Source: a virus
Lineage: Duplodnaviria; Heunggongvirae; Uroviricota; Caudoviricetes
IMG/VR virus record: IMGVR_UViG_3300015615_000629
Coordinates: 32,001-96,000 of that record
Direction: 5' to 3' (one strand)
Length of the DNA: 64,000 nucleotides
Shown: in pieces, positions 6,490 to 55,127 of the stretch
Numbering within the stretch: position 1 is the first letter of the stretch
Layout: every line of letters starts with the position of its first letter
The notes under the pieces: generated by a model
Told to the model about the DNA's origin: nothing
The model's input: only the letters and a program-made list of their open reading frames with translations
Database searches by the model: none
Program-made: the position numbers and the translations under genes

Positions 6490-7700
6490 TCAATTTCAGA
6501 GGATTTTGATTTCTTTTTAGATTTGCTTGGCATTTTAATTGGTTTTTCTCCAATGTCCAATGCTAAAGCATTAACACGTTCTAATACCTCTTTATCCAGA
6601 ATATTCACCCTGTTATTTTCTATCTTTAGTATGTCTCTAATATGTTCGTATTCATTATACATATCGACACCTCGGGAAATGGCGTCTTCTATCGATTTTA
6701 CCGTGGCTCCGTATGAAGCCTTGCGATATCGAGTTCGATGCTTGAGGTCAATACAATCAATTTCGCAATCGGGCGTATCGTCCGGAGCACATCTGCGAGA
6801 ATCTAGATCATGATAACTAATTCCTAAATCCCCGACAAACCATGAAAAAGGCACGCCAAAAACAGACTGCCCGCCTTGATAACTTTGGCGATAAAATTGT
6901 GAAACATCTTTAAAATCAGTAGACATAATGGTACAAGGAACGATTAACTCACGGTGAATTGTATCATCGTAGATATCTGGGTATTTTTTGGCGATGTGAT
7001 AGCAATCATCAACATACCCGCCAGTGGGGCGATGTGTATATGTAGAAACAAGCGTTAAACAATCTTTTCTCAAAAGGTATTCATCTGGTTCGTGGCCGGA
7101 TTCTTTTCTTGGTCCAATGTCTCGTCTATAGCCCGTTTGAACAATAATGTCTTTTGGCGGCCTTATCACAAGACAACGCTCTGTATTTGTATTTCGTACC
7201 AATGATTTGGCTGTGTATTCTCGAATATAATATTCGTTGCTTTCAGTACGACAACGGTTTGAATTATATGGCAGTGGCTCAACATCGGTTGGCAATAATT
7301 TAACAAATTTTCGACCAATGTCGTCACCATAGAATTCAAAATGAGATTTAAAATAATATTCATACACAATTAACCATATTTTTAGAGCCTCGTTATCATT
7401 GTGAAAATGGTTTTTCAATTTCCAGTTGCCGGCATTTAATGGGCCAAACGGATACCATTGATAAAGGATGTCGTATTCTTCTTGTTGCTTCATACATTTG
7501 GCAATTAGATACTTGGTAATATCGATGAATTTTTCCAGCACAATATTAGAGAAATATTCTGGTCTTATTGTCTCTAGAAAGAAAAGATATAACCGCAATG
7601 CATCTTTTAGATTTTTTGGGGCACCAACGTTCCTGTACTTTTCAAGATATTTCTTGACTAGATATATTTTTCTATAGGAGTCTAAACGGCTATTGCTCAT
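6474..7700 (-). CDS. hypothetical protein (408 aa) downstream of helicase
   Basis: Long ORF overlapping the helicase stop. Confidence 0.75.
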   Translation of the reverse strand: MSNSRLDSYRKIYLVKKYLEKYRNVGAPKNLKDALRLYLFFLETIRPEYFSNIVLEKFIDITKYLIAKCMKQQEEYDILYQWYPFGPLNAGNWKLKNHFHNDNEALKIWLIVYEYYFKSHFEFYGDDIGRKFVKLLPTDVEPLPYNSNRCRTESNEYYIREYTAKSLVRNTNTERCLVIRPPKDIIVQTGYRRDIGPRKESGHEPDEYLLRKDCLTLVSTYTHRPTGGYVDDCYHIAKKYPDIYDDTIHRELIVPCTIMSTDFKDVSQFYRQSYQGGQSVFGVPFSWFVGDLGISYHDLDSRRCAPDDTPDCEIDCIDLKHRTRYRKASYGATVKSIEDAISRGVDMYNEYEHIRDILKIENNRVNILDKEVLERVNALALDIGEKPIKMPSKSKKKSKSSEIDWSKY

Positions 7701-9570
7701 GGTGCCACCTTAGAATAGACCTAACCGCACGCTCTGTATCGGGTGATACAGGTTTTTTTGGTACAGGTTTAACTAGGCGATCTGACAAAAGGTTCCTAAT
7801 CGCCAGCAACTTATCCGGCGTCATTTTGCCTTCAAAAAACAAAGAACGACCAACGGCTGACTTTTCCATAATGTGATCAACGCCATGTTCATCTAATAAA
7901 ATCTTAATATCCGTTACGGGTTTTCCATTTTGGTTATTGAATAATTTACAAAGTTTTTCTAGAAACCTAATTTCTATTTGGCCTATAAGTTCGGGATATA
8001 AAGAATATCGTTCCGCGAGATTGCGACACATTTCTAATACGTTGTCTCGCGTCTTGTTTTCTAAATTCTCATATTCAAATACTAAATTTTCCAAAGCCTC
8101 TTCTCGTGGAACATTTAGGGCGTCCCATAAATAATAACGTTGTCCACCCGCAACCCCAGACGAATTAGACCTATAGAGAATAACTGGATTGAATTCATCG
8201 TCTAGTTCCAAGCACGCCATAATCAAATTGAAGCAATGTGAAAACTGTTCTCTTGAGGTTGTTCCGTCTATCTCCGGAAGACGTTCTAAATAATTGATAA
8301 TACGAACTTCGCGTTTGCCGGGGAACCGTCGCATGGCTCGACCGATAGTCTGCATGTATTCGGTCATAGAGCCATTCGGATACTTGGCATAATGTATTCT
8401 AGCACAAGAAACCCAATCTGTCCCCTCTAGTGCCATTTTGCATGTAACGACATGGCGGATTTGAATCTTTTCTGGCGAGTTTTTGGGTTCGTGACGAAGT
8501 CTTTCCATGTTGCGGTTCTGTGTTTTCTGATTCATAAGATCGATAACTTCATTCCCCTTATATTCCGTTAGGCTGGAGATAAGATTGGTATGAGCATTCG
8601 GATGATTTTTGCGATATTTTCCACCCTTCGGAGGCAAACAATACAAATGACAAGCGTCCTGGTAAGGATCGTTCTTGACGTTTGCGATAATTCTGTCGTT
8701 AGGAGTACCGCCTGGAGCGAATTCTTCAAATTCAATAATAACATTTTCCAACCCCAAAGTTGGCAAGTGTTCGTGCCAATATCTTGTATAAATATCGAAT
8801 TTGTCAAGATCCACCACAACTGGATCTTGATCTCCCCTATAGAATGTGGCGGTTGCTAATCTGATCTTAGCACTTAAAGAGTTCAGTATGATAAAATTAA
8901 CAATACCAGATAAAATATTTTGATAATTTAGATCACACTCGTCCAAGGTAACATTATTGATGTGATGAGCCTCGTCTATAATTAATACTAAGTTTTGTGT
9001 TGCTGTTTTCCTTTCCTCCTCGGATAAACCGTTCCAAACTTGGCACAACAGAGCATGAGTTGCTATAGCATTAAGGCCACTGATAATGTTATCATTTAGA
9101 TTCTTGTGGTGTGTGGTTTTTAATTGTTCTGCTGGTGCAAGCAGCCATTCCTTTAGTCTGTTTTTAGATCGAACAAAATTGTGTTTTGGTAAAATTTTCC
9201 AATCATACTCTGTTCCGTCAACATTTAGCTTAATACATTCCAAATCGTTATGTCCAAATACAAAATTATCCGCTATGTTCCGTTGCGGTGTTACAATAAG
9301 AACCTTTTGGTTGAAATTTGATGAAACGATGTCATGTATACCAAGAGCCACCAAGAGAGTGGTTTTGCCGGCACCGCATGGGGCTCTAGTTATTGTAAAC
9401 TGATTGTTCTTTTGTTGGTTGTATGCTTGTTGTTGCCAGCCATCGCCATGCGAAAGGAATTTGCAAACATTTTCAGTTTCAGTGGTGTCAATTAAGTTGT
9501 GGGCCTCCGGTTCGTAGGATTGATAATTAAAATCCGGACGAATTGTAAAATTTTGATTGGCAGCTCTCAT
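7690..9570 (-). CDS. superfamily-2 DEAH helicase/ATPase (type III Res-like), copy 1
   Basis: APCGAGKT, IIDEAHH, TATFYRGD, EGTDW, QTIGRAMR. Confidence 0.85.
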   Translation of the reverse strand: MRAANQNFTIRPDFNYQSYEPEAHNLIDTTETENVCKFLSHGDGWQQQAYNQQKNNQFTITRAPCGAGKTTLLVALGIHDIVSSNFNQKVLIVTPQRNIADNFVFGHNDLECIKLNVDGTEYDWKILPKHNFVRSKNRLKEWLLAPAEQLKTTHHKNLNDNIISGLNAIATHALLCQVWNGLSEEERKTATQNLVLIIDEAHHINNVTLDECDLNYQNILSGIVNFIILNSLSAKIRLATATFYRGDQDPVVVDLDKFDIYTRYWHEHLPTLGLENVIIEFEEFAPGGTPNDRIIANVKNDPYQDACHLYCLPPKGGKYRKNHPNAHTNLISSLTEYKGNEVIDLMNQKTQNRNMERLRHEPKNSPEKIQIRHVVTCKMALEGTDWVSCARIHYAKYPNGSMTEYMQTIGRAMRRFPGKREVRIINYLERLPEIDGTTSREQFSHCFNLIMACLELDDEFNPVILYRSNSSGVAGGQRYYLWDALNVPREEALENLVFEYENLENKTRDNVLEMCRNLAERYSLYPELIGQIEIRFLEKLCKLFNNQNGKPVTDIKILLDEHGVDHIMEKSAVGRSLFFEGKMTPDKLLAIRNLLSDRLVKPVPKKPVSPDTERAVRSILRWHHEQ

Positions 9571-54522: not shown

Positions 54523-55127
54523 TAAACTTTAACCTTATGCATAGCCCAAGTAATCATATTTGTTTTTCCGCTGCAATTATAAGTGTAATTCGGAATCTTA
54601 CTTATCCATTTTTCTAATTCAATCGAACCAACATTGTTTGGTAATTTACGTGCAAATTGATAGGGGTCGAATTGAATGCTGCTCCGAGAATCGTTGAGCA
54701 TCGCGTTCACTAAAAGGACTGTATCTTTCTTGCAAAGATACATGGTAGAAGCGACCATTTTAACTATTTGATCGCGATCTGCGAATTTTGTAACGTCTAA
54801 ATAAACGAGTCCAGGGTCAAAATTATCTACTTCTCGGATTATGTCCAGCCACTCTCCGCAATACCAAAATGCCTCCGGATGCCATTTTGCATTTTTAAGT
54901 ATTATTTCTTCGGACCAATCAACTCCGAAAAACTGGTTTTTAGTTATCAAACCCAAATCCTCCAATTGGACTATCTCAGAACCTTTCTCGTTAGGTTGAA
55001 AATTACATAAAGTCCAATAACCTTTGCATACAGGCAATTTCTCGTTGCCCGTTAGTTCTCTATACAGACGAACATTTTCCTCGCGGGCTTTGATCTTGGC
55101 AGATAAGTTCCAGTATTCCGGTTGCAT
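54522..55127 (-). CDS. helicase-partner protein, possible SAM-methyltransferase-like fold, copy 2
   Basis: Paralog of 9573..10163; TAATG-coupled to the helicase. Confidence 0.6.
   Translation of the reverse strand: MQPEYWNLSAKIKAREENVRLYRELTGNEKLPVCKGYWTLCNFQPNEKGSEIVQLEDLGLITKNQFFGVDWSEEIILKNAKWHPEAFWYCGEWLDIIREVDNFDPGLVYLDVTKFADRDQIVKMVASTMYLCKKDTVLLVNAMLNDSRSSIQFDPYQFARKLPNNVGSIELEKWISKIPNYTYNCSGKTNMITWAMHKVKV

Follow-up and report, generated by a model that had tools for sequence, protein, structure and literature searches.

Two copies of a conserved phage module pairing a methyltransferase-fold protein with a DEAH superfamily 2 helicase

The 64,000-nt stretch of DNA analysed here (the window) comprises bases 32,001–96,000 of the tailed-phage record IMGVR_UViG_3300015615_000629, which is 572,167 bp long, carries direct terminal repeats and is rated 100% complete. 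The window has ~40% G+C and a dense array of short genes, most of them on the minus strand; no tRNA genes were found within its 64 kb. It contains two copies of a two-gene module in which a gene for a protein of ~200 amino acids precedes a gene for a superfamily 2 (SF2) helicase. In copy A, smallA (positions 9573–10163, minus strand; assigned by open reading frame (ORF) and homology) encodes a divergent 196-aa protein with a predicted class I methyltransferase fold, and helA (7690–9570, minus strand; assigned by ORF, motifs and fold) encodes a 626-aa DEAH SF2 ATPase whose tail is short and free of repeats. In copy B, smallB (54522–55127, minus strand; assigned by ORF, homology and structural model) encodes the canonical 201-aa version of the methyltransferase-fold protein, and helB (51253–54522, minus strand) a protein of 1089 aa. 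The latter consists of a DEAH SF2 ATPase core (residues 1–590; 52753–54522, minus strand), defined by motifs, profiles and tree, and a tail (residues 598–1080; 51283–52731, minus strand) made of eight basic repeats of 53–66 aa that end in RPDWF.

The two pairs are paralogous and arranged in the same order. SmallA and smallB are 34% identical end to end (E 1e-30), and helA and helB share 33% identity over ~554 residues (E 3e-89). Within each pair the genes are tightly coupled: the helA ATG lies 2 nt past the smallA TAA (TAA-aa-ATG), and the helB ATG overlaps the smallB stop codon (TAATG). A preliminary description made from the sequence alone had reported this arrangement with exactly these ORF boundaries, and each of the motifs that it listed occurs in both copies (YWTLCN, QF.GVD and LNDSRS in the small protein; DEAHH, TATFYRGD and EGTDW in the helicase). 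Its statement that the helicase C-termini differ completely has to be corrected, since the alignment extends to residue ~570 of both proteins; from there helA continues for ~57 residues and helB for ~515, including the eight repeats. The helA stop codon is a TAG (7690–7692), and read-through would add just five residues before a second TAG. The whole genome contains exactly two copies of the small gene and two of the helicase gene.

To assign a fold to the small protein, we modelled it with AlphaFold2 from an alignment of 40 homologues. The model has a mean predicted local distance difference test score (pLDDT) of 96.5 and a predicted template modelling score of 0.92, and opens with an N-terminal helix, after which strands, seven in all, and helices take turns. 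The class I S-adenosylmethionine (SAM)-dependent methyltransferase fold is a seven-stranded Rossmann-like sheet with strand order 3-2-1-4-5-7-6 and a terminal hairpin. Among the Foldseek and VIA-align matches listed for the model, nearly all are class I SAM-dependent methyltransferases; the best VIA-align match has a Z-score of 14.7 and a root-mean-square deviation of 3.3 over 167 residues, and no subfamily is prominent. The predicted structure thus establishes a class I SAM-methyltransferase Rossmann fold for the small protein, in line with its earlier designation as methyltransferase-like.

The conserved residues are consistent with a cofactor site, which the model makes likely. Across 178 family members the most conserved positions (smallB numbering) are K11 and R15, which sit in the N-terminal helix, and E51, Q65, G68, D70, N79, D111, N141, W174 and Y183; smallA retains all of them. 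D70, D111, N141 and E51 are kept in 96–99% of the members. D70 (96%) terminates strand 2 (residues 66–70) and D111 terminates strand 4, which in the methyltransferase fold are the places of the ribose-binding and the catalytic residue, respectively; N141 lies within strand 5, and E51 at the start of helix A. Weak, non-significant hidden Markov model (HMM) alignments lay the FfGvD...GeW segment on motifs II–III of HvrF and of the TehB-like methyltransferase 3cgg, with D70 on motif II of both.

Sequence searches place the small protein in a family of its own. No model in Pfam, PHROGs, NCBIfam or PADLOC matches smallA or smallB, even at permissive thresholds; the methylase families PF01555, PF02086 and PF02384 match neither, and PF20553, a lead from a protein atlas, has no match in the genome. 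An hhalign comparison of the family with a canonical methyltransferase from the window gave no signal, and the family profile found only non-significant hits among Protein Data Bank (PDB) sequences. A profile search of 1.84 billion representatives returned 666 clusters (50% identity) at E ≤0.001, 129 of them at E ≤1e-30; among the members listed, nearly all are stand-alone proteins of ~200 aa. The sources are metagenomes, with contigs of up to 390 kb. Among 185,579 species genomes there were two hits, both on contigs of metagenome-assembled genomes, and tblastn with smallA and smallB found no match in 50,697 GenBank phage records. As judged from these searches, the family is almost wholly viral. 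One metagenome protein of 292 aa (P0178) joins an I-HmuI-type NUMOD domain to the first ~130 positions of the family profile and provides a second tie between the family and homing endonucleases, next to a neighbouring gene described below.

The partner is an SF2 helicase by several measures, as had been proposed. PF04851 (ResIII; cut-off 22.5 bits) matches helA with 41.8 bits and helB with 23.1 bits. HelA matches ResIII and DEAD, with Helicase_C just under its cut-off; helB matches ResIII and DEAD more weakly. SF2 motifs I, Ia, II (DEAH), III (TAT) and VI (QxxGRxxR) are intact in both copies; in helA, GAGKT is found at residue 66, DEAH at 199, TATFYRGD at 240–247, EGTDW at 382 and QTIGRAMR at 407. 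The helA model (pLDDT 72) contains two RecA-like domains and, between motifs Ia and II, an insertion specific to the family, so that motifs and domain architecture together identify an SF2 helicase or translocase. Foldseek returned generic SF2 matches only. In VIA-align the best folds for the core were the FANCM translocase (Z 18.0, 350 residues), the DNA-repair protein 6jde (16.9), DRH-1 (16.6), INO80 (16.1) and Hef (15.6). This ranking leans towards a duplex translocase, by a small margin over other SF2 enzymes. FANCM, Hef, RadD and the RIG-I-like duplex translocases resemble the modelled core over ~320–350 residues (Z 15.6–18.0), but identity is only ~12–16%, the core carries the family-specific insertion noted above, and other SF2 families score just a few Z units lower.

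Neither helicase shows a nuclease domain or fold in searches with Pfam, PHROGs, NCBIfam, Foldseek and VIA-align, where the fold searches covered the helA model and the helA tail was modelled at low confidence; the earlier remark that no nuclease motif is obvious was thus borne out. In PADLOC-DB 2.0 the helicases match only generic P-loop models (Cas3, DinG and PbeA, at ≤29 bits), and no defence system was matched by the components of the pair.

The helB tail is set apart from its core by composition, with an isoelectric point of 9.8 as compared to 6.2. A profile built from 23 RPDWF units retrieved 134 proteins, on contigs of up to 618 kb: stand-alone arrays of 140–520 aa, arrays on SF2 helicases, and one array on a GIY-YIG nuclease. 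In two of the proteins (P0240 and P0297) RPDWF units come immediately after a true PF03457 (HA) unit, and the Trp-containing motifs at the ends of the two unit types resemble each other. An orthologous helicase with a different tail (L006) scores against HA at E 1.2e-4, below cut-off, and the clusters nearest to the repeats in a protein atlas are HA, at a weak 0.79. Like HA arrays, the RPDWF units are tandem short helical modules of ~60 residues on or beside SF2 helicases; unlike them, they are not matched by the PF03457 model, which at E 10 finds nothing in helB or in the rest of the genome. The unit profile found no solved structure in the PDB, and hhalign gave no signal between RPDWF units and the repeat units of phage Tunturi_5 (see below). 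The reference list of PMC12191111 includes an NMR structure of an HA domain, with DNA binding stated in the title of the study. The company of HA domains and a GIY-YIG nuclease in the same proteins indicates a DNA role, and we infer that the RPDWF repeats are DNA-binding modules related to HA, with the kinship itself a lead rather than a result. The preliminary description had spoken of swappable target-recognition tails: variable arrays resembling DNA binders are indeed present, and target recognition is plausible for them.

The small gene and the helicase gene stay together in other genomes. When IMG/VR was searched with the small-protein profile, a helicase gene was adjacent and on the same strand in 10 of 10 loci (9 distinct). 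Gene order varied, with the small gene directly before the helicase, separated from it by repeat ORFs, or after it, and no other neighbouring gene was conserved around the module in these loci. Among 56 metagenome loci, not all of them independent, the helicase was seen in 36: in 28 it is the next gene downstream, in 3 repeat ORFs intervene, and in 5 it lies upstream. The other 20 loci are truncated, either ~1.1 kb or less downstream of the small gene or no more than 200 nt upstream of it. Of these, L044, L060 and L073 show no helicase hit in 0.9–1.1 kb of downstream sequence, a length in which an ORF could still lie between the two genes, and none of the loci is a clear counter-example. In the reverse search, with a helicase as query, the small gene was found upstream in 4 of 4 loci. 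Both domains also occur in single proteins. P0137 (938 aa) joins an N-terminal small domain to the same helicase family (28% identity to helA, E 4e-35); P0183 (902 aa) has an N-terminal small domain followed by a weak DEAD-box hit only. Finally, the identity matrices of small protein and helicase correlate across 13 pairs (r 0.86, Mantel p 2e-4), a correlation that shared phage ancestry alone could also produce. Small protein and helicase form a conserved phage unit, as their pairing in the window had led the preliminary description to expect. The module is spread through uncultured phages, including contigs of 300–600 kb, and the libraries of Pfam, PHROGs, NCBIfam and PADLOC hold no description of it, in agreement with its earlier characterisation as undescribed.

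The two copies differ in their relatives. In the helicase tree helB falls into a supported clade with orthologues from other phages, whereas helA forms an unplaced long branch; for smallB the highest identity to proteins from other phages is 63%, and for smallA no relative exceeds ~37%. The tree, together with the contrast between this 63% and the 34% identity of smallB to smallA, rules out a recent duplication, which leaves an ancient duplication or an independent acquisition of copy A. The module is present once in each of four further phage records tested, none of them complete. Copy A keeps the conserved residues of both proteins and has no repeat array, which suggests that, as an old fast-evolving paralogue or a separate acquisition, it is a second, differently targeted version.

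Each copy is followed by a further coupled ORF. Downstream of helA, a 408-aa ORF (6474–7700, minus strand) starts with an ATG 11 nt ahead of the helA TAG stop and so overlaps it; downstream of helB, the start of a 74-aa ORF (51032–51256, minus strand) overlaps the helB stop codon (ATGA). Each may be a third gene of its copy. They show no kinship to each other, and neither was found beside other module copies in the viral loci examined. The 408-aa ORF has no family match, nor any relatives in the viral loci or, in a scan for close relatives, in IMG/VR, and was therefore dropped as a conserved third component. On the other side of copy B, a gene divergently transcribed from smallB (55122–56279, plus strand) encodes a 385-aa protein with several Cys-rich, zinc-ribbon-like units, whose C-terminal region matches PHROG families of HNH/homing endonucleases (phrog_559, E 3e-26), which makes a gene of the homing-endonuclease type probable.

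Two described systems come close to the module. In the DarB dyad, which forms part of giant polyvalent proteins of phages and plasmids (Iyer et al., 2017, PMC5512222), an EcoKI/TaqI-like adenine methylase is joined to a SWI2/SNF2 ATPase and to an LPD36 domain. The module resembles this dyad in its order, with a methyltransferase-fold unit placed ahead of an SF2 ATPase either as the N-terminal part of one protein or as the preceding gene, in being phage-borne and in showing no nuclease; the same logic of a translocase delivering a methylase along DNA may apply. It differs in that the small protein has neither a methylase profile match nor an NPPY-type motif, that the helicase matches ResIII/DEAD rather than SNF2, and that the genes are usually separate. 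Domain order and fusions thus fit the DarB type, while its methylase type, SNF2 signature and polyvalent context are absent. Type III restriction-modification systems (Mod + Res) likewise pair a methyltransferase-fold protein with a ResIII-type DEAH ATPase in a unit of two genes, and the helicase qualifies as a ResIII-type SF2 ATPase of the kind found in Res subunits. In contrast to these systems, the module has no DPPY adenine-methylase motif, its family is viral rather than cellular, and no endonuclease domain was detected: searches for a C-terminal PD-(D/E)xK endonuclease reported no nuclease family or fold for either helicase, with the helA tail modelled at low confidence. With methylase type, SNF2 signature and polyvalent context missing and no nuclease detected, the module fits neither system, and the full match to a described system that would have overturned the preliminary description was not seen.

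These comparisons lead us to a model, to which we assign a probability of roughly 40%, in which the module is a nuclease-free phage DNA writer, a translocase carrying a modification subunit by analogy with DarB and Mod-Res. The two proteins of each copy would act as one machine. The DEAH SF2 ATPase would most likely track along duplex DNA with the ~200-aa methyltransferase-fold protein riding on it, and in copy B and most relatives the basic arrays of HA-related ~60-residue repeats would hold or aim the motor on DNA. Using ATP, the machine would carry a modifying subunit, probably one that transfers methyl groups, along the DNA of phage or host and would not cut it. The folds, motifs, linkage, co-divergence, fusions and repeat array with its partners were observed as described above; a physical complex, a DNA substrate, SAM binding, catalysis and the biological role are what the model infers. 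A more specific version appears doubtful: a new epigenetic writer in which a non-canonical methyltransferase-fold enzyme rides a duplex translocase and processively marks very large phage genomes, exchangeable HA-related arrays set where the motor loads, and the two copies act on different targets.

Several observations weigh against a DNA writer. No methyltransferase profile matches the small-protein family by sequence. YWTLC..Q stands in place of motif I, with GxGxG in just 1 of 178 members, and the (D/N/S)PP(Y/F/W/H) motif is found in none of the 178; with motif I degenerate and the PP motif missing, neither SAM binding nor DNA amino-methylation can be taken as given. Some structural neighbours of the helicase are RNA enzymes. 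The cultured Tunturiibacter phage Tunturi_5 (PP885688.1, 308.7 kb) encodes an orthologue of the helicase, gp100 (42% identity; locus L017, 5980–9763), followed by gp99 and gp98, which are annotated 'DNA helicase' and are actually arrays of ~57-aa repeats; the small protein is absent throughout the Tunturi_5 genome, which argues that the motor can work without its partner. In addition, the phage studied here has three Dam-type (PF02086) and six N6/N4 (PF01555) methyltransferase genes above cut-off, for example at 194418–195134 and 210746–211438 (C1), outside the window; no PF00145 cytosine-5 methylase scored above cut-off in its genome. A further protective methylase is thus not obviously needed, and the nine canonical genes rule out the module as the only DNA methylase of this phage.

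The strongest competing explanation, which we consider possible if improbable, is that the helicase is a core motor of repair, recombination or fork remodelling, comparable to FANCM, Hef, RadD and UvsW, and that the methyltransferase-fold protein is a non-catalytic accessory or regulatory subunit. Such a role would agree with the top structural matches (FANCM, the DNA-repair protein 6jde and Hef), with the degenerate motif I of the small protein, and with Tunturi_5, where the helicase without small protein lies beside a DNA ligase, a thymidylate kinase and an SNF2 helicase. Homing-endonuclease-type genes beside or fused to family members point the same way; such an association is common for core phage genes. 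However, near-invariant D70, D111, N141 and E51 at cofactor and catalytic positions would be unusual for a pure scaffold, and the Z-scores of FANCM and unrelated SF2 enzymes are only a few units apart.

The fold matches also bear on RNA as a substrate. An RNA helicase paired with an RNA methyltransferase that modifies rRNA, tRNA or phage transcripts would fit the many translation genes of this genome, and the window itself encodes a release-factor-like protein with PCRF and RF-1 domains (56248–56928, minus strand). The top folds of the small protein include rRNA 5-methylcytosine methyltransferases or their close relatives (4dmg and 3c0k) and METTL16, and the helicase has DRH-1, RIG-I, DEAD-box proteins and the NS3-NS5 complex among its neighbours. 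We nevertheless regard an RNA module as unlikely: the fold scores fail to separate RNA from DNA enzymes, the conserved cysteines of the small protein lie off the catalytic positions of 5-methylcytosine methyltransferases, and the association of the repeat arrays with HA domains and a GIY-YIG nuclease points to DNA.

Less probable still is a DarB-like anti-restriction factor, packaged in the virion or made very early, that masks or modifies incoming phage DNA in cis. The order of methylase-like unit and SF2 helicase is that of the DarB dyad and the module is almost wholly phage-borne, but the EcoKI/TaqI-type adenine methylase, the SNF2 signature and the polyvalent protein are all lacking, and no conserved structural genes lie nearby.

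The preliminary description had favoured a restriction-modification-like or anti-competitor function, a proposal that the failure to find a nuclease or a PADLOC system, the nearly viral-only family, the nine canonical methylase genes and the single-copy state of the module in the four other records speak against. A system of this kind with a cryptic nuclease, for example in the tails or the coupled downstream ORFs, would accommodate the ResIII match, the variable tails, the duplicated module and the unrelated coupled ORF in each copy, but is very unlikely, since no nuclease domain or fold was detected, PADLOC yielded no matching system, conservation does not extend from the pair to the downstream ORFs, and the family is nearly absent from cellular genomes.

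Elsewhere the window encodes a WGR-PARP protein (34437–36029, minus strand) and an RGP-like glycosyltransferase homologous to plant-type RGP (50050–51021, plus strand), as well as AAA ATPases, a ClpX-like protein, ParB and GNAT acetyltransferases.

Methylase-helicase pairings recur in phage-host conflicts, in DarB, type III restriction-modification systems and parts of BREX and DISARM, and to our knowledge all of these use recognisable adenine methylases. Here, an unannotated methyltransferase-fold family is combined with a helicase family of its own and with modular repeat arrays. The module is a real, conserved and uncharacterised component of phage genomes and a variation on the methylase-helicase theme. 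If the small protein is an enzyme, the result may be a DNA mark beyond prediction by current annotation; if it is not, a methyltransferase fold would have been reused as a motor subunit. Either way, the pair defines a module that is open to testing and common among large uncultured phages.

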